From Clostridia bacterium (lineage in GTDB: Bacteria; Bacillota; Clostridia; Oscillospirales; CAG-272): DNA of 64,000 nt. Position 1 is the stretch's first letter; each line of letters starts with the position of its first letter. Where the stretch lies: NCBI GenBank assembly GCA_017505785.1, contig JAFVOQ010000061.1:62-64061 (forward strand). Direction: 5' to 3'. Position numbers and translations under genes: made by a program. Shown piece by piece: positions 17,104 to 55,120 of this stretch. The notes under the pieces were generated by a model, which worked only from the letters and a program-made list of their open reading frames with translations, was not told where the DNA came from and searched no databases.

Positions 17104-17706
17104 ATGGGCTTTGGATTATTGTTGATCGGATATTTTTTAGCCAACATTTTGCCTGTAATATCGTTTTTTTCGGTGGCAATGATACCCGGATTTGCGATGA
17201 TTACGGTTGGGCTGTATCGGTTGGCTCCCTATCACAAACGGTTTTATTTTTCGTGGCTGTTTTCCTTACCCTCATCTCTTTTTGGATTGTATTACACTCT
17301 TTACAGCCTTGTATCGATTGGTATATTTCCCCGGCTTGAAGCTCTTGGTGGCACAGTATTCAACGTAGTAGAATGGATATATTTGGTGTATACGCTTACC
17401 TTAAGCCTGTTGATCTTGTGGAGTATCGCCTCACTATCGAGCGAGCTTGGACTGTATGGCATTCAAAGCGCGGCATGGCGAAATTTGACGTTTGTTGCCA
17501 TTTATCACACTCTGTTTTTTATTGTTAAGCTACCTCTTGCCGTTATCACGGCGCATGCCACGGCATTTGTGTTACCGATCACGATTCTGCGGTATCTTTG
17601 CGTATTTTTAAATTTATGGCTCTTTTTCCGTTGCTTGCGCGATATTTTACCCGAAGGAAGCGACATAGAAGTGTCAAATAGCTCAAAGGAGAAAAAGAAT
17701 GACTAA
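17104..17706 (+). CDS. hypothetical polytopic membrane protein
   Basis: 200-aa hydrophobic ORF with GGGGAG RBS; stop overlaps the next start. Confidence 0.75.
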   Translation: MGFGLLLIGYFLANILPVISFFSVAMIPGFAMITVGLYRLAPYHKRFYFSWLFSLPSSLFGLYYTLYSLVSIGIFPRLEALGGTVFNVVEWIYLVYTLTLSLLILWSIASLSSELGLYGIQSAAWRNLTFVAIYHTLFFIVKLPLAVITAHATAFVLPITILRYLCVFLNLWLFFRCLRDILPEGSDIEVSNSSKEKKND

Positions 17707-19081
17707 AAGATTTATTCTCGTACTTGTCGGGCTTTGCTTCTTTTTTAATCCCTACTTTGCGGCAATTGACGTTTTGCCCGATTTTATCGGATGTCTACTG
17801 ATTGCTATAGGTCTTATTCCGCTTTCTCGTATTTCATTGCCGATGAAGGAAGCGCAGCGCAGCTTTTTAATATTGGCTTTGATCGATGCTGCAAAGCAGG
17901 TTCTGCTGTTGTTTGTATTTGGCAACAGTGCCTTGGGAGAGCAAGAGGTGCTTTTACTGATCGTGGCTTTTCTAAGCGCTACGCTTGGAACGGTATTTGC
18001 TGTGCACGCCATGCGCACCTTGTTTAACGGTCTTGCTTGGTTTGCCGATACATATGAGTGTGAGAGCTTGTGTGCCGTAAAGCGTCAAGGTCGCTCTCGC
18101 ACAGAATTGTTTGCACGTTTTACCGTATTTTTTGTGATTGCAAAGGAAGCGATCCTGCTTTTACCTGAATTTGCAGCTTTGCTAAACAGTACATACGCGG
18201 ATTCCGACTTTGTACGTCTTTATAATTATATCGGCTTAATGCGTGCGCTTGCCGTAATTCCCGTTGCGATACTCGGCTTTTATTGGCTTTGCGCACTGAT
18301 CGTGTATTTTTGCAGACTTTTGAGGGAAAAGGTCTTTTTGCAAGCACTAAACGAGCGATATGTTTCCTTTATGGAAGAGCATCCCGGCACGCGTGTCAAG
18401 GCAAGATATTTTGTCGCATTTTGCCTCATTGCCACAGGCTTGTTTTTTCTAACCGATTTCTATCTTGATTATTGGAATATCATTCCCGATACCGTAGGCG
18501 GATGCCTCATTCTTTGCGGTGTGCTTTTGCTTGGAATTTCACGCAAGGTATATTTGCCGGCTGTGCTATCGGCAGTGCTGTATACCGTAGTAGCAAATAT
18601 TTCCTCGCACAAGTCTTATTTGTTTGTGTCTGAGCACGTCGGCGGAGATATTTCGCGCAGCGAAGCTGTGGCAAAGCAATATCAAATTATGTGGATGTGG
18701 TCGCTTGCAGAGCTTTTTTGCTTTCTTGTGCTTTTGCTGTTTCTCATCCTTGCACTGCGTGCCGTTCTTATAAAATGGGGCGGCTATCTGCCCGAACACG
18801 CGGATGTGGATTTTGAGGCACGGCATGAACTTAAAATTCGCGAGGAATTTGATTGGCAGTTTATCAAATGCTATATTTTTGGCTTTCTCAGCGCATTGCT
18901 CTCCTTCTTCTTCGATTATTTTAAAACATGGCCCAATACCGAATCTCTGCGTTATTTTTCCCGTTTTATGGAAGGACTGTGGGTTCCGGATTTTATACTT
19001 GCCATCTTTTTTGCTGTGTATATGTCCTATACGCTTACGCTTGCTTTTGCAAAGATCGGCGAACGGTTTATGTTTGAGTGA
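17699..19081 (+). CDS. hypothetical polytopic membrane protein with internal duplication
   Basis: 460 aa, many TM-like segments, AAGGAG RBS; repeated motif DVLPDFIG / NIIPDTVG. Confidence 0.8.
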   Translation: MTKRFILVLVGLCFFFNPYFAAIDVLPDFIGCLLIAIGLIPLSRISLPMKEAQRSFLILALIDAAKQVLLLFVFGNSALGEQEVLLLIVAFLSATLGTVFAVHAMRTLFNGLAWFADTYECESLCAVKRQGRSRTELFARFTVFFVIAKEAILLLPEFAALLNSTYADSDFVRLYNYIGLMRALAVIPVAILGFYWLCALIVYFCRLLREKVFLQALNERYVSFMEEHPGTRVKARYFVAFCLIATGLFFLTDFYLDYWNIIPDTVGGCLILCGVLLLGISRKVYLPAVLSAVLYTVVANISSHKSYLFVSEHVGGDISRSEAVAKQYQIMWMWSLAELFCFLVLLLFLILALRAVLIKWGGYLPEHADVDFEARHELKIREEFDWQFIKCYIFGFLSALLSFFFDYFKTWPNTESLRYFSRFMEGLWVPDFILAIFFAVYMSYTLTLAFAKIGERFMFE

Positions 19082-19109
19082 ATAATTAAATCTGCACCTC
19101 CACATACTA
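19080..19109 (+). promoter_or_regulatory. sigmaG-type (forespore) promoter
   Basis: GAATA (19080-84)-18-CATACTA (19103-09) matches the B. subtilis sigmaG consensus GHATR-17/18-CATAHTA. Confidence 0.65.
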
Positions 19110-19153
19110 TCCTCGAACACCTTGTGTGCTCGAATTTAAAGGAGATTTGTGTG

Positions 19154-19321
19154 ATGCAGAACTATAATCAAAATCAAAATCAAAACCAGAACAAGAATAA
19201 CCAGAGCAACAACCAGAACCAGAATCAGAACCAGAACAAGAACAATCACAACAACAACCAGAATAACAATCAGAACCAGAACCAGAATCAGATCCAGAAC
19301 AAGAACAACCAATATCGCTAA
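19154..19321 (+). CDS. 55-aa Asn/Gln-rich microprotein
   Basis: AAGGAG RBS at 19139-44, ATG 19154; 28 N + 17 Q of 55 aa; own promoter and terminator. Confidence 0.75.
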   Translation: MQNYNQNQNQNQNKNNQSNNQNQNQNQNKNNHNNNQNNNQNQNQNQIQNKNNQYR

Positions 19322-19346
19322 AACGATATTTCCCCAAAATCGGGGG

Positions 19347-19381
19347 GCAGGGGCGCTTGTTCGCCCCTGCTTTTGCTTTTT
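19347..19381 (+). terminator. intrinsic terminator after the N/Q microprotein
   Basis: gcaggggcg/cgcccctgc stem followed by ttttgcttttt. Confidence 0.75.
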
Positions 19382-19409
19382 ATGTAGCTAAAGTGAGGTT
19401 TTACATATC

Positions 19410-21818
19410 ATGTCAGAGCTAAATAAACGTTATCTTTTGGCAAAGCGCGCCTTGTTTGACCGTTATTACAGGTCGCTAAACAACGAGCAGCGCGAGGCAA
19501 TTTATCATATCAACAGTCCGTTGCTGATCTTGGCGGGTGCCGGTAGTGGAAAAACCACGGTGCTTGTTCATCGCATTGCATATATGATCCGGTTTGGAAA
19601 TGCATATCTTAGTGATTACGTTCCTTTTGACCTTGACCCTGCACACGTTGCAGTATTGGAAACGGCAGTGAATGCTGATATGAGCAAAAGCGAGCTTGAG
19701 GGGTTGCTTTCCGAATTTGCCAACAATCCGTGTCCCCCTTGGCGTATGCTTGCCATAACCTTTACCAATAAGGCTGCAGGTGAGATCAAGGCAAGACTTT
19801 CCGCCGCCTTTCCCGAGGATCCCGAGGTAACGACCGGTATTTGGGCGGGAACCTTTCACTCTGTTTGTATGCGTATCCTGCGTCGCTACAGTGAGGCAGC
19901 TGGACTGCGTGAGGGATTTTCTGTTTACGATGCGGATGACAGCAAAAAAGCCATACAGGCCGTTTTAAAGGAATTAAATATAGACGAAAAGGTGCTTTCG
20001 CACAAAACGGCTCTTACCTATATTAGCCGTGCAAAGGATAGAATGATCATGCCCGAGGTATTTGAGCTCGAAATGGGAAACGATCATCGAATGAAAACCA
20101 TAGCAAAGGTATACGCGGCGTATCAAAAACGCCTTGCCGCCTCCAATGCACTGGATTTTGATGATATCATTTGCCGCACGGTGCAGCTTTTAGAGCAAAA
20201 CAAGGAAATTTTGCAAAGCTATCAAAGCCAATTTCGATATGTTTCGGTTGACGAGTATCAGGATACCAACGAAGCACAGTTTCGCCTTACCGCTTTGCTT
20301 TCGGGTGGCTGGCGCAATTTAATGGTGGTTGGTGACGATGACCAAAGTATTTATAAGTTCCGCGGTGCAACCATTGCCAATATCTTGAACTTTGACCGTG
20401 TGTTCAGTGATGCCAAGGTCATCCGCCTTGAGCAGAATTACCGTTCTACACAATCTATTCTTGATGCCGCAAATGCAGTGATTGCACACAATCAGGGCAG
20501 AAAGGGAAAAACGCTTTGGACCGATCGCGGAAAGGGGAGTAAAATACATCTTTTAAATCCCGATCATCAAAATGCCGAAGCACGCGTGATTATCGATACG
20601 ATCGTGAGTAAGGTGGCAAAGGAAGGCTTGCATTACCGTGATTTTGCCGTTTTGTATCGCACTAACGCGCAATCGAACGCACTGGAAATGGCATTTGCAA
20701 GAAGTGCCATACCTTACCGCATGCTTGGTGGCATTCGATTCTCCGACCGCAAGGAAATTCGCGACCTGGTGGCTTACTTACAGCTTATCAACAATCACGA
20801 GGATCAAGACAGACTCCTGCGCATTGTGAATGAACCGCGCCGCAAGCTCGGGGACAAAACCTTGGCTGCCGTACAGGAGATCGCGGCGATCGAAGGTGTT
20901 AGCATGTTTGATATTATGGAGCGCGCAGATCAGTACATGGCGCTTTCTCGCTCCGCTGCAACACTGATCGGCTTCACAAAGCTTATCAATGAGCTGACAG
21001 CACTTTCAACCGTTATGGCGCTGGATGATTTTGTAAGGGAAGTGCTAACCCGCACGGGCTACCGCCAGATGATTGAGGATATGGGCCCTGAAGAAGCGGA
21101 CCGACTTGATAACCTTGACGAATTTATTTCAAACGTTGTGGAATATCAAAGCAATACCGACACCCCGTCGTTGGTTGAATTTCTTGAAGAAACTGCACTT
21201 GTTGCAGACGTAGATCGCTATGACGATACTGCGGATGCAGTTATCCTTATGACGATTCACAGCGCAAAGGGACTTGAGTTTCCTCAGGTCTTTTTGCCGG
21301 GCTTTGAGGAGGGAATATTCCCGGGACTTCAAACTGTAATGGGAGGCCCTGAGGAGATCGAGGAGGAGCGACGTTTGGCATATGTGGCGATCACGCGCGC
21401 AAAAAATGAATTGTATATTTTACACGCAAAATCACGTATGCTGTATGGTAGAACAGGTGCAAATCCGCCCTCACGTTTTCTTGCCGAAATCCCCGAAGAG
21501 CTGCTTGAATTGCCAAAGCCTGCTCATACTTGGGGAAATTCTACCGGATTTGCAGGACACGCTGTGGCAAGCGCACCGCAGCATAACGGCATGCGTGTGG
21601 CAGCTGCCGACCGCATCACTGTAGGTCCTACGCGCACACCTAAAGCCGAAAGCGCAGCATCTTTTGCAGCAGGGGACCGTGTGATGCATGCACTGTTTGG
21701 AAAAGGAGAGATTTTAGCAGTCCAAAAGATGGGCAGCGATTATCTCTATGAGATCGCTTTTGATACCAAGGGCACAAAGAAGCTCATGGAAACCTATGCG
21801 AAATTGAAAAAAATATAA
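19410..21818 (+). CDS. pcrA: ATP-dependent DNA helicase PcrA/UvrD
   Basis: LAGAGSGKT, TFTNKAA, VDEYQDTN, VGDDDQSIYKFRGA, MTIHSAKGLEF, EERRLAYVAITRA. Confidence 0.97.
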   Translation: MSELNKRYLLAKRALFDRYYRSLNNEQREAIYHINSPLLILAGAGSGKTTVLVHRIAYMIRFGNAYLSDYVPFDLDPAHVAVLETAVNADMSKSELEGLLSEFANNPCPPWRMLAITFTNKAAGEIKARLSAAFPEDPEVTTGIWAGTFHSVCMRILRRYSEAAGLREGFSVYDADDSKKAIQAVLKELNIDEKVLSHKTALTYISRAKDRMIMPEVFELEMGNDHRMKTIAKVYAAYQKRLAASNALDFDDIICRTVQLLEQNKEILQSYQSQFRYVSVDEYQDTNEAQFRLTALLSGGWRNLMVVGDDDQSIYKFRGATIANILNFDRVFSDAKVIRLEQNYRSTQSILDAANAVIAHNQGRKGKTLWTDRGKGSKIHLLNPDHQNAEARVIIDTIVSKVAKEGLHYRDFAVLYRTNAQSNALEMAFARSAIPYRMLGGIRFSDRKEIRDLVAYLQLINNHEDQDRLLRIVNEPRRKLGDKTLAAVQEIAAIEGVSMFDIMERADQYMALSRSAATLIGFTKLINELTALSTVMALDDFVREVLTRTGYRQMIEDMGPEEADRLDNLDEFISNVVEYQSNTDTPSLVEFLEETALVADVDRYDDTADAVILMTIHSAKGLEFPQVFLPGFEEGIFPGLQTVMGGPEEIEEERRLAYVAITRAKNELYILHAKSRMLYGRTGANPPSRFLAEIPEELLELPKPAHTWGNSTGFAGHAVASAPQHNGMRVAAADRITVGPTRTPKAESAASFAAGDRVMHALFGKGEILAVQKMGSDYLYEIAFDTKGTKKLMETYAKLKKI

Positions 21819-22635: not shown

Positions 22636-23421
22636 ATGAAAAAAATTATATCATTTTTATGCATGTTAACGCTTTGTGTTAGCGTGTTGTGGTGTGAGAT
22701 CTATGCTGTGCCCACCAAGGAAATTCATTGGTATACTACAAGAAATAAGGATCACAAGCAAGCTTTAGTTCCACCCGATCTTTCCTTTGTAGAAAACCAC
22801 GGCGGCGTTTATATTGATCATAGGCATGACGATAGCAATCCCGACAAGGTGGTATACCTTACTTTCGATGTGGGATACGAGAACGGCAACGTAGAAAAAA
22901 CGCTAAATACACTAAAGGAAACGCAAACACCGGGTGCTTTTTTCGTTTTAAAGCATTTTGTAACAAAAAACAGTGATTTGCTTCTTCGCATGGCGGAAGA
23001 AGGGCATTTAATTTGCAATCATACTGCAAGCCATCCCAATCTTGCAAACGCTTCAAAGGAAAAAATCAAGGAGGAGATCATTTCACTTGAAAAAGCAGTA
23101 GAAGCGGTTACGGGAAGCGGTACCAAGCCTTATTTTAGGCCTCCTGAGGGTAGCTTTTCACTTGAAATGCTGGAAACGGTGCAATCCATTGGCTATAAAA
23201 CCGTATTCTGGAGCTTTGCCTATGCAGATTGGGATAACAACAAGCAACCGCAGCCTTCCGCGGCACTTTCACAGATCCTCACACACATGCACAACGGCGC
23301 CGTGATACTTCTGCATCCAACCTCCGCCACAAATGCCGAAATTTTACCCGAGTTGATCAGCACCTTAAAAAATGAGGGGTACCGCTTTGGTACGCTTGAT
23401 GAATTATGCTTTGCAAGGTAA
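22636..23421 (+). CDS. pdaA: PdaA-type polysaccharide deacetylase (spore cortex muramic delta-lactam synthesis)
   Basis: YLTFDVGYENG (PdaA-like variant), NHTASHP, YFRPPEG, WSFAYADW, HNGAVILLH. Confidence 0.85.
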   Translation: MKKIISFLCMLTLCVSVLWCEIYAVPTKEIHWYTTRNKDHKQALVPPDLSFVENHGGVYIDHRHDDSNPDKVVYLTFDVGYENGNVEKTLNTLKETQTPGAFFVLKHFVTKNSDLLLRMAEEGHLICNHTASHPNLANASKEKIKEEIISLEKAVEAVTGSGTKPYFRPPEGSFSLEMLETVQSIGYKTVFWSFAYADWDNNKQPQPSAALSQILTHMHNGAVILLHPTSATNAEILPELISTLKNEGYRFGTLDELCFAR

Positions 23422-24104
23422 AAAGCAAACGTGCTCTTGCGCTGATATTGGCGATATTCCTGTTATTCCTATTTTCAATTCAATCCTTTGCCACACCTAA
23501 GATCGTATATCGCCATACAGGCAACAGTGAAAAGAAAAGAGTGGCACTCACCTTTGACGACGGTCCGCATCCACGTTATACGCCAAAAATTCTTGATATT
23601 TTAGCAGAGTTTGGTGTGGAAGCAACCTTTTTTGCGGTAGGTGCTAATGTAGAAGCCTATCCTCAAATTGTAAAAAGAGAATTGGCGGAAGGGCACGAGA
23701 TCGGCAATCACACCTATCATCACTATCATACCGTCAATACAAACGGCAGTATTTTGGTTGAGGATATTTTGTCCTGCAGTGATGCCATTCAAAAATGCAC
23801 AGGGGAGGATGTGCATCTTTTTCGCCCACCGGAAGGCGTATTTAATGAGGATATTAAAAGGCTGTGTGAAGAAAAGGGTTATATCATCGTAATGTGGAGC
23901 GTGGACACAAGGGATTGGGCGCATACGCCAATTGAAGAAATTTGTAAAAACGTGAAAGAGAATGTTAAGGACGGTTCTATTATCTTAATGCACGATTTTA
24001 TCGGTAAAAACAGTCCGACCCCTGCAGTGCTTCGGCGAATCATACCGATGCTACAGGAGTCGGGATTTGAATTTGTAACGGTTAGTCGTTTGCTTCAGGG
24101 GTGA
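23406..24104 (+). CDS. polysaccharide deacetylase (CE4, PdaB-like)
   Basis: Signal/TM, ALTFDDGPHP, GNHTYHH, FRPPEG, WSVDTRDW, IILMHD. Confidence 0.9.
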   Translation: MLCKVKSKRALALILAIFLLFLFSIQSFATPKIVYRHTGNSEKKRVALTFDDGPHPRYTPKILDILAEFGVEATFFAVGANVEAYPQIVKRELAEGHEIGNHTYHHYHTVNTNGSILVEDILSCSDAIQKCTGEDVHLFRPPEGVFNEDIKRLCEEKGYIIVMWSVDTRDWAHTPIEEICKNVKENVKDGSIILMHDFIGKNSPTPAVLRRIIPMLQESGFEFVTVSRLLQG

Positions 24105-54391: not shown

Positions 54392-55120
54392 ATGCACTTC
54401 AACCGTGTTTTTTTATGCCTGCTTTGCTGCTTACTTCTATGCAACGGTTGCGAAAAGGCTTCTGCCGCACATACCGAAGCTATGCAAGAGCAGGTATGTA
54501 ACAAGCAGGCTTGCTTTCTTGATACACTGACATTTTTGGGCGATTCCACAACCGCACACATGCTTTTACGCGCGCCGCTAAAGGACGGCAAGGAATCAAA
54601 GCAGGTTTGGGCAACCAAAAGCCGTTATTTAAATTTAAGCTCACGCATCACCTATGAAAAGATCATATGCCCCGAAAACGGGCAGGAGCTTACCATTGCC
54701 GAGGTGGCAGCAGTTACAAAACCCGCACGGCTTGTGATTACACTTGGGATCGACTACGGTGTATATTATTACCGAAACAAGCTTGATACCTTTGGTTATT
54801 ACTATGAAAAGCTGTTAGATGCTATTTTAGCCGCCTCACCAAACACCAATTTGATCTTACAATCAATCTTCCCAGTGGGAAAGAACAGCACGGTTATCAC
54901 CAATGCCATGGTGGACAACGCCAACCGCGTAATTGCTGAAATTGCCGCGCGTCGCTCGCTTGTTTATATCGACACCGCAACAGCTTTAAAGGATGCCGAA
55001 GGATATCTGAAAGCTGACTATTGCTACAGCGATGACGGCATACACCTCACCGCCTCGGCGTATGAAGCAATATTTGAAAATATCAAAAAATATGAAGCTG
55101 AGGTTAGGTCAAAGGAATGA
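54392..55120 (+). CDS. SGNH/GDSL hydrolase-like lipoprotein
   Basis: Cys-containing signal peptide, FLGDS, TLGID, DGIHLT. Confidence 0.85.
   Translation: MHFNRVFLCLLCCLLLCNGCEKASAAHTEAMQEQVCNKQACFLDTLTFLGDSTTAHMLLRAPLKDGKESKQVWATKSRYLNLSSRITYEKIICPENGQELTIAEVAAVTKPARLVITLGIDYGVYYYRNKLDTFGYYYEKLLDAILAASPNTNLILQSIFPVGKNSTVITNAMVDNANRVIAEIAARRSLVYIDTATALKDAEGYLKADYCYSDDGIHLTASAYEAIFENIKKYEAEVRSKE

Follow-up and report, generated by a model that had tools for sequence, protein, structure and literature searches.

An unannotated Asn/Gln-rich microprotein gene of Oscillospirales with a candidate forespore promoter and an analogy to gamma-type spore proteins

The genes for SASPs (small acid-soluble spore proteins) depend on sigmaG, and the gamma-type member of this group, the Gln/Asn-rich SspE, is absent from clostridia (PMC3533761). 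According to Galperin et al., the minor SASPs of clostridia comprise only SspH, SspI and Tlp (PMC3533761). Here we describe a gene whose product may, by analogy, work like a gamma-type SASP and yet lie outside every described family. It encodes a 55-residue peptide composed largely of Asn and Gln (the N/Q peptide) and lies in a 64,000-nucleotide (nt) stretch of DNA, hereafter the window, from a Clostridia bacterium of the order Oscillospirales (CAG-272; assembly GCA_017505785.1, contig JAFVOQ010000061.1, positions 62 to 64,061). We lean towards the reading that this is a real, unannotated gene, that it is driven by SigG, and that its product is a storage or matrix peptide accumulated in the spore core.

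The likeness to SspE (PF04259, of the Bacillales) is one of form and proposed role. Both proteins are small, built from repeats, rich in Gln and Asn, of low complexity and without a hydrophobic core; both are encoded by monocistronic genes with a consensus sigmaG-type promoter, a strong ribosome-binding site (RBS) and a terminator; and the role that we propose for the N/Q peptide matches that of SspE as an amino-acid reserve degraded at germination. No sequence homology was found, however. Asn and Gln make up about 80% of the N/Q peptide, Gly, Ala, Glu, Phe and Thr being nearly missing from it, and it is basic where SspE is near-neutral; its gene belongs to Clostridia. The identification as SspE was ruled out by the lack of a match to the SASP_gamma profile and of a TEFAS-type GPR site. 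The original prediction had said as much, that the peptide is no simple SspE orthologue and that SspE is reported absent from clostridia, and both points stand, the former on the missing Pfam and NCBIfam matches and GPR site, the latter on the literature (PMC3533761). The minor SASPs of Bacillus (SspG-SspP and Tlp) offer a looser parallel, being proteins of 34-71 residues, restricted to particular lineages and encoded by sigmaG-driven stand-alone genes that gene callers often miss, although they too lack homology to the N/Q peptide and none of them resembles an N/Q homopolymer.

By composition, the nearest published analogue is GerG (CD0311) of Clostridioides difficile, which is likewise lineage-specific, and contains Asn-rich tandem repeats that differ in number from strain to strain and bring about gelling in vitro (PMC5241399). 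GerG is nevertheless larger and has ordered flanks, whereas the N/Q protein is repeat throughout; the GerG repeats (GMPNNMSNNMNSNM) contain about 30% Asn together with Met, Pro and Ser; and mother-cell sigmaE controls GerG, while the spacing and -10 element of the N/Q promoter fit sigmaG. GerG acts on the incorporation of Csp protease, and its repeats are dispensable for function. The Q/N-rich prion-like domains of eukaryotes, such as Sup35 N with its GNNQQNY steric zipper, are similar in composition, and the motifs NYNQ and NNQY occur at the ends of the N/Q peptide. In contrast to the Sup35-type domains, the N/Q peptide is free, 55 residues long and bacterial, is attached to no other domain, and is interrupted by regularly spaced Lys. 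It is Q/N-rich and of low complexity in the manner of prion-like sequences (82% Asn plus Gln, which is also the family median), and a tendency to form polar zippers, amyloid or gels would be expected by composition alone.

The N/Q gene had been predicted to be a complete small transcription unit with its own promoter, RBS, 55-codon open reading frame (ORF) and terminator, and each of these elements was found in place between positions 19079 and 19383 of the window (Table 1) and is conserved in 27 congeneric species. The claim that the unit stands alone needs qualifying: it does have a promoter and terminator of its own, but in the absence of a terminator before the ORF it is probably also transcribed by read-through from the upstream operon. 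Transcription from the unit's own promoter would start about 7-9 nt 3' of the -10 element, near 19116-19118, and the 5' untranslated region shows no significant structure (fold z = 0.09). The 3' region, by contrast with this, folds strongly (-33.2 kcal/mol, z = -4.05) into three independent hairpins, of which the terminator hairpin has 13 pairs in the terminator scan.

It is the conservation of this arrangement that carries the case for a real gene. Sequence search is unsuited to the family, since a six-frame search of 40 relatives with the peptide returned one weak match, in the slot between the membrane-protein gene and pcrA that flank the unit, and so recovered only 1 of 26 orthologues later revealed by synteny. 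Anchoring instead on the 460-residue membrane protein encoded upstream, which is present in 36 other genomes of the genus at 38-82% identity, gave 29 loci that reach pcrA; an N/Q ORF of 37-67 codons occupies the slot in 26 of them, a 27th orthologue comes from a contig that is cut short, and the site is empty in three species, where just 18-82 nt separate the membrane-protein gene from pcrA. An anchored alignment of the 27 upstream regions, all from this one genus, defines the promoter footprint. The sequence GAATA-17/18-CA[T/C]ACTA is perfect in 20 of the 27; the -35 element is GAATA in 25 and GTATA in the other two, with 1.4-2.0 bits at the TGAATA positions; the -10 element, CA[T/C/A]ACTA, carries 1.5-2.0 bits per position except at the third (0.6 bits); and the spacer between them, which measures 18 nt in 19 orthologues and 17 nt in the other 8, carries 0-0.7 bits per position. 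AAGGAG(A) precedes the ATG by 6-11 nt in 25 of the 27, and where the downstream sequence can be read, nearly every orthologue has a hairpin with a T-run after the ORF. Within the genome itself (1.69 Mb), GAATA-N17/18-CA[TC]A[ACT]TA occurs once, at the N/Q unit; about 2 sites would be expected by chance, so that the lone match is not significant genome-wide and proves nothing by itself. The signal, on this comparison of sequences, is that the motif is held at a constant distance from the ORF in 27 species while the spacer conveys close to 0 bits.

The reading frame is conserved in the same way. That it is open is no evidence, for no stop codon interrupts the +1 frame or two of the antisense frames across the repeat either; the conserved ATG, RBS and stop codon belong to the N/Q frame only, and synonymous variation is confined to it. 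In the window ORF, Asn is encoded by 19 AAC and 9 AAT codons and Gln by 13 CAG and 4 CAA. Pooled over the orthologues, AAT/AAC stand at 215/363 (37% AAT, against 42% genome-wide) and CAA/CAG at 179/244 (42% CAA, against 41%), and these genomic ratios indicate an old, protein-constrained sequence rather than a young slippage array. Net charge lies between +3 and +5 in 24 of the 27 peptides, and is +4 in 14 of them, despite lengths of 37-67 residues and from 0 to 5 acidic residues; where Asp or Glu occurs, extra Lys or Arg offsets the charge, which suggests that charge as such may be under selection. Differences in length between species are always in frame. The earlier suggestion that codon variation reflects selection at the protein level is thereby upheld, and the comparison supports selection on the protein rather than slippage alone. 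With little doubt, this pattern of conservation marks the ORF as a real gene. The locus also appears in gut and faecal metagenomes of several independent studies; one faecal contig has a 3-nt in-frame deletion at 19199, inside the repeat, and metagenome assemblies from three studies all break somewhere in that repeat, so that repeat length polymorphism or assembly collapse is likely in public metagenome-assembled genomes (MAGs).

The peptide sequence is exactly as originally quoted: 28 Asn and 17 Gln make up 45 of 55 residues (82%), joined by 3 Lys, 1 Arg, 1 His and 2 Tyr for a net charge of +4, with no Asp, Glu, Phe, Ala or Thr. The copies of its 45-nt repeat are 79-84% identical (Tandem Repeats Finder), from which it follows that the ORF arose by in-frame duplication and then diverged. 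The genome (50% G+C, 98% complete) has no other N/Q-rich ORF, and gene callers have never annotated this one. No family in Pfam-A (E <= 0.01) or NCBIfam (E <= 1) was matched by hmmscan, and this ruled out the minor SASPs as well as the alpha/beta-type SASPs (PF00269), of which the genome has a separate and genuine representative. In a collection of 15 billion proteins the peptide was absent under three choices of start codon, as were four orthologues and the antisense ORF; a phmmer search of 5.8 billion proteins gave 370 word-sharing candidates of which none scored, probably through the correction for composition bias, and is uninformative on absence. A literature search found no description of near-pure N/Q spore proteins. 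The AlphaFold2 monomer has a mean local confidence (pLDDT) of 56.5, a global fold score (pTM) of 0.19 and no secondary structure, and the peptide is accordingly predicted to be intrinsically disordered. Signal peptide and hydrophobic segment are both absent. A precursor of a ribosomally made, post-translationally modified peptide, or a secreted peptide, was ruled out: there is no Cys/Ser/Thr core, no signal peptide, and no gene for modification or transport nearby. Tryptic digestion is predicted to yield MQNYNQNQNQNQNK, NNQSNNQNQNQNQNK, NNHNNNQNNNQNQNQNQIQNK and NNQYR.

With respect to promoter class, the sigmaG consensus of B. subtilis is GHATR-18-CATXHTA, and the N/Q promoter matches this B. 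subtilis consensus perfectly, spacer included. The consensus sequences of clostridial sigmaF and sigmaG are similar to those of B. subtilis; a G upstream of the -10 element is the mark of sigmaF, that of sigmaG being an A at the downstream edge of the element (PMC3789822). The N/Q promoter has no G 5' of its -10 element, which ends in A. The genome encodes the factors required to read such a promoter: its SigG passes the NF006071 cut-off with 416 bits, and there are genes for SigF-, SigE- and SigK-like factors; there are in addition spoVAD-spoVAE, SpoVT, a SpoIIQ-like protein and a single alpha/beta SASP (C32:20833-21003, minus strand). Two adjacent polysaccharide deacetylase genes lie within the window itself (22636-24104), their best models being those of the sporulation proteins PdaA (262.7 bits against a cut-off of 298) and PdaB (189.8 bits against 237), and this pdaA/pdaB-like pair supports a sporulating lifestyle. 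Forespore genes of the genome share the promoter grammar of the N/Q unit: spoVT has GTATA-17-AATACTA, the spoIIQ-like gene GTATA-17-AAAAATA, and sigG the sigmaF-type GTATA-15-GGCAATACT. The predicted sigmaG-type architecture thus has matching counterparts in the same genome. Relaxed genome-wide scans recover spoVT and the SpoIIQ-like gene and are too noisy to define a regulon. We consider the N/Q promoter probably of forespore type, forespore transcription being well supported by comparative anatomy, though unproven. Elsewhere in the window, a further forespore-type match, GTATA-18-CATAATA, lies in front of a gene (54392-55120) whose product is a putative lipoprotein of 242 residues that carries a GDS(T)-type hydrolase motif.

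The gene is not peculiar to its source genome. A different genus of the family (L169) and an 'uncultured Eubacteriales' MAG (L149) show the same order of membrane gene, N/Q unit and pcrA. Across 401 genomes and 178 genera of the order, a pattern of at least 15 consecutive Asn, Gln, Lys or His codons is present in 68 genomes and 49 genera, and the reversed control pattern in far fewer genomes. Thirty sampled loci included about 22 stand-alone N/Q ORFs of 38-76 residues, all with an RBS and most with a terminator; roughly half of the stand-alone loci match GNATA-17/18-[C/A/G]A..(T)A, and a few more do so by eye, with examples being GAATA-17-CATAATA and GNATA-17/18-CAAAATA. Housekeeping genes, among them yebC, dinB, leuB, rlmH and thrS, flank the units, and which of them do so differs by family; since the neighbours are unrelated, the N/Q unit would seem to act as an autonomous cassette rather than as part of a local operon. 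On its sequence features, the gene belongs to a class that is widespread in the order. In a Faecousia MAG the N/Q ORF lies 62 nt 3' of spoVAE with no terminator between them. The spoVA operon is sigmaG-dependent in B. subtilis, so that here the N/Q ORF is appended to an operon with that dependence in B. subtilis. Among the matches listed by a contig scan with (CARAAY)x5, unrelated hexamer repeats from Proteobacteria, Archaea and other groups prevailed, the useful ones being L059, L084, L114 and L149. Low-complexity sequence of a similar type is found in a different architecture at one locus (L184, genome G072), where an N/Q/Y/P-rich tract (MDYNQNNQNQNNQ...) at the N terminus of a 157-residue protein is joined to transmembrane segments.

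We propose that SigG-RNA polymerase would transcribe the N/Q gene at a high rate in the engulfed forespore, at a late stage of sporulation, and that the peptide would build up in the spore core, as SASPs do. Its most likely use there would be as a concentrated reserve of amino acids and amide nitrogen, possibly with an additional part as a hydrogen-bonding, water-replacing component of the matrix, and it would be degraded at germination. These steps differ in standing. We infer forespore expression from the promoter; accumulation in the core is speculative; and what we say of storage or of a part in the core matrix is a reasoned conjecture, offered tentatively. A bolder version, which we think improbable, is that spore-forming gut Clostridia might have a widespread class of sigmaG-driven, near-pure Asn/Gln core peptides of fixed small positive charge. 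Very highly concentrated in a core that contains little water, these polar-zipper peptides might associate through hydrogen bonds into a reversible gel or glass, or might coat nucleic acid, and in that way contribute to the immobility of the core and to dormancy; at germination they would dissolve and be hydrolysed to amide nitrogen for outgrowth. They would in that case take the functional place of the gamma-type SASP missing from clostridia, without homology to it and with an added role in material state.

Several observations, here and in the paragraph that follows, weigh against expression in the forespore and storage in the core. A clean GAATA/CATACTA (GNATA/CATnnTA) motif is not seen at the promoters of the alpha/beta ssp gene and spoVAD in this genome, and consequently the best-known sigmaG genes of the lineage do not calibrate it. 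In the genus (loci L191-L219), the only conserved block upstream of the alpha/beta SASP gene is GCTCTTGAAAATAGAT, about 75 nt 5' of the ATG; a GC-rich, variable and hairpin-like region lies 3' of that block. Across the order, N/Q units and SASPs are not significantly associated (62/68 genomes with the pattern have a SASP, or 91%, versus 282/333, or 85%, of those without), a comparison of low power and uninformative because 86% of the order's genomes carry a SASP. Six genomes with the pattern have no SASP hit, including G177 (100% complete) and G287 (99%), which lack PF00269. Matches in a public run labelled as RNA cover the repeat only, at 90-95% identity, and so come from another organism. 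Finally, the peptide has no GPR cleavage motif that could account for its degradation. Within the genus, one genome (G003, 98% complete) has neither an N/Q unit at the syntenic site nor a SASP hit, and may have lost sporulation.

The main confounder is the mother cell, in that the ATA of the -35 element and the CATAC of the -10 element also resemble sigmaE promoters. In B. subtilis, sigmaE promoters have ATA in the -35 element, a -10 element of CATACA-T and about 16 nt from ATA to CATA, and the N/Q -10 sequence, CATACTAT, comes near to this; the CotJA-like gene of the genome has GCATA-17-CATCCTA. Under a sigmaE- or sigmaK-type promoter, the peptide would be a gel-forming, low-complexity protein of the coat, cortex or intermembrane space, for which GerG, a spore protein that is sigmaE-controlled, Asn-rich and gel-forming, provides the analogy (PMC5241399). 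We nevertheless favour sigmaG because ATA and CATA lie 17-18 nt apart in every one of the 27 orthologues, the first base of the -35 element is an invariant G, the third base of the -10 element is free to be T, C or A when CATA is nearly invariant for sigmaE and sigmaK, and the -10 element ends in TA, as in the sigmaG sequence CATnnTA. The lack of a signal peptide or hydrophobic segment and the joining of the Faecousia unit to the forespore spoVA operon also tell against a mother-cell product, which we regard as quite unlikely. Slightly less remote, if still unlikely, is a peptide that is not specific to spores at all. All genes from secA through pcrA are on one strand; no terminator turned up in the gap 5' of the N/Q ORF when 18500-19900 was scanned; and in the clade of the window (L003-L013) no promoter is recognisable in the 25-40 nt between the terminator and pcrA. 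Lacking a promoter of its own in this clade, pcrA is probably expressed by read-through from secA and the two membrane-protein genes, such transcripts must therefore exist, and the N/Q ORF is probably carried on them during vegetative growth. The promoter match would then be secondary, and the product a basic disordered peptide that binds nucleic acid or ribosomes or enters condensates; the conserved charge of +3 to +5 would be suited to the binding of a polyanion. This leaves unexplained a strictly conserved consensus forespore promoter, which is kept in other families where the units stand alone between convergent or unrelated genes, and the strong terminator points to a dedicated short transcript.

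The same neighbourhood invites a model in which the ORF is a cis-acting leader peptide, the speed of ribosomes over 45 Asn and Gln codons reporting the supply of Asn- and Gln-tRNA and so setting termination before pcrA. A codon run of regulatory type, a terminator 21 nt after it, pcrA a further 35 nt on and no other visible pcrA promoter in the clade are what such a model would predict, but folding of the 3' region gave no competing antiterminator or alternative pairing, only the three independent hairpins, and at 37-67 codons the ORFs far exceed known leader peptides. The sister clade (L018-L032) has a TTGC-N17-TATAAT promoter between terminator and pcrA; in the three species without an N/Q unit, pcrA directly follows the membrane gene; other families have an unrelated gene downstream, or one on the opposite strand; and a helicase has no link to the supply of Asn or Gln. 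Given the lack of alternative pairing and this comparative decoupling from pcrA, the attenuator model was ruled out, and any leader function has the slimmest chance of the explanations weighed here. Scarcely more credible is the absence of any functional gene, whether the ORF is a hexanucleotide microsatellite that happens to be open in frame or the true product is a Leu/Val/Ile-rich antisense ORF (19136-19312, minus strand) acting as a type I toxin-like peptide. Tandem repeats are indeed present, three other frames are open across them, (CARAAY)n tracts occur in many unrelated genomes among the matches listed, and gene callers pass the ORF over. Yet ATG, RBS and stop are conserved in the N/Q frame alone, promoter and terminator are oriented for it, its variation is synonymous in no other frame and sits at genomic codon equilibrium, and the net charge of its product is conserved. 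The antisense ORF was ruled out, as it has no RBS, starts with TTG, lies after the terminator and has the expression signals in the opposite orientation.

As to the wider neighbourhood, secA is followed by two overlapping genes for polytopic membrane proteins (200 residues, 17104-17706, and 460 residues, 17699-19081) that match no Pfam or NCBIfam family. Relatives of both, at about 24-25% identity, follow secA in the L149 MAG, and they constitute an uncharacterised secA-linked pair.

Table 1. Features of the N/Q transcription unit and its flanking genes (window coordinates)
Feature	Position	Strand	Remarks
Upstream neighbour, 460-aa polytopic membrane protein	17699..19081	+	No Pfam/NCBIfam family; synteny anchor
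-35 element, TGAATA (GAATA at 19080-19084)	19079..19084	+	Overlaps TGA stop (19079-19081) of the 460-aa membrane-protein gene
Promoter spacer, 18 nt	19085..19102	+	Sequence not conserved among orthologues
-10 element, CATACTA, sigmaG-type (CAtnnTA)	19103..19109	+	
RBS, AAGGAG	19139..19144	+	ATG 9 nt further on
ORF, 55-aa Asn/Gln-rich microprotein MQNYNQNQNQNQNKNNQSNNQNQNQNQNKNNHNNNQNNNQNQNQNQIQNKNNQYR, stop included	19154..19321	+	ATG 19154; TAA 19319-19321
Internal tandem repeat, 45-nt (15-codon) unit, about 2.5-2.8 copies	19178..19302	+	Tandem Repeats Finder; background of degenerate AAC-CAG hexamers
Small 7-bp hairpin across the stop codon (AAUAUCG/CGAUAUU)	19311..19330	+	RNA fold
Intrinsic terminator, GC-rich hairpin (19343-19374; core stem 19346-19355 / 19362-19371), then UUUUGCUUUUU	19343..19383	+	Terminator scan and fold
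Downstream neighbour, PcrA/UvrD helicase	19410..21818	+	Start 35 nt past the terminator

Clostridia are held to lack a Gln/Asn-rich storage SASP of the gamma type and to have very few types of SASP in all (PMC3533761). If our reading is right, a gene for a peptide of about 80% Asn and Gln behind a sigmaG promoter would fill the place of SspE by convergence, and would do so in about one sixth of the sampled genomes of the order; it would represent an abundant and unrecognised component of the spores by which many gut commensals pass between hosts. Genes of this kind fall in a blind spot, since gene callers, searches with hidden Markov models corrected for composition, and low-complexity filters all miss them. 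Near-pure N/Q proteins are very rare in bacteria, and the peptide is a minimal system, of natural origin, in which polar-zipper, gel or glass behaviour could be studied within a dehydrated cell compartment.

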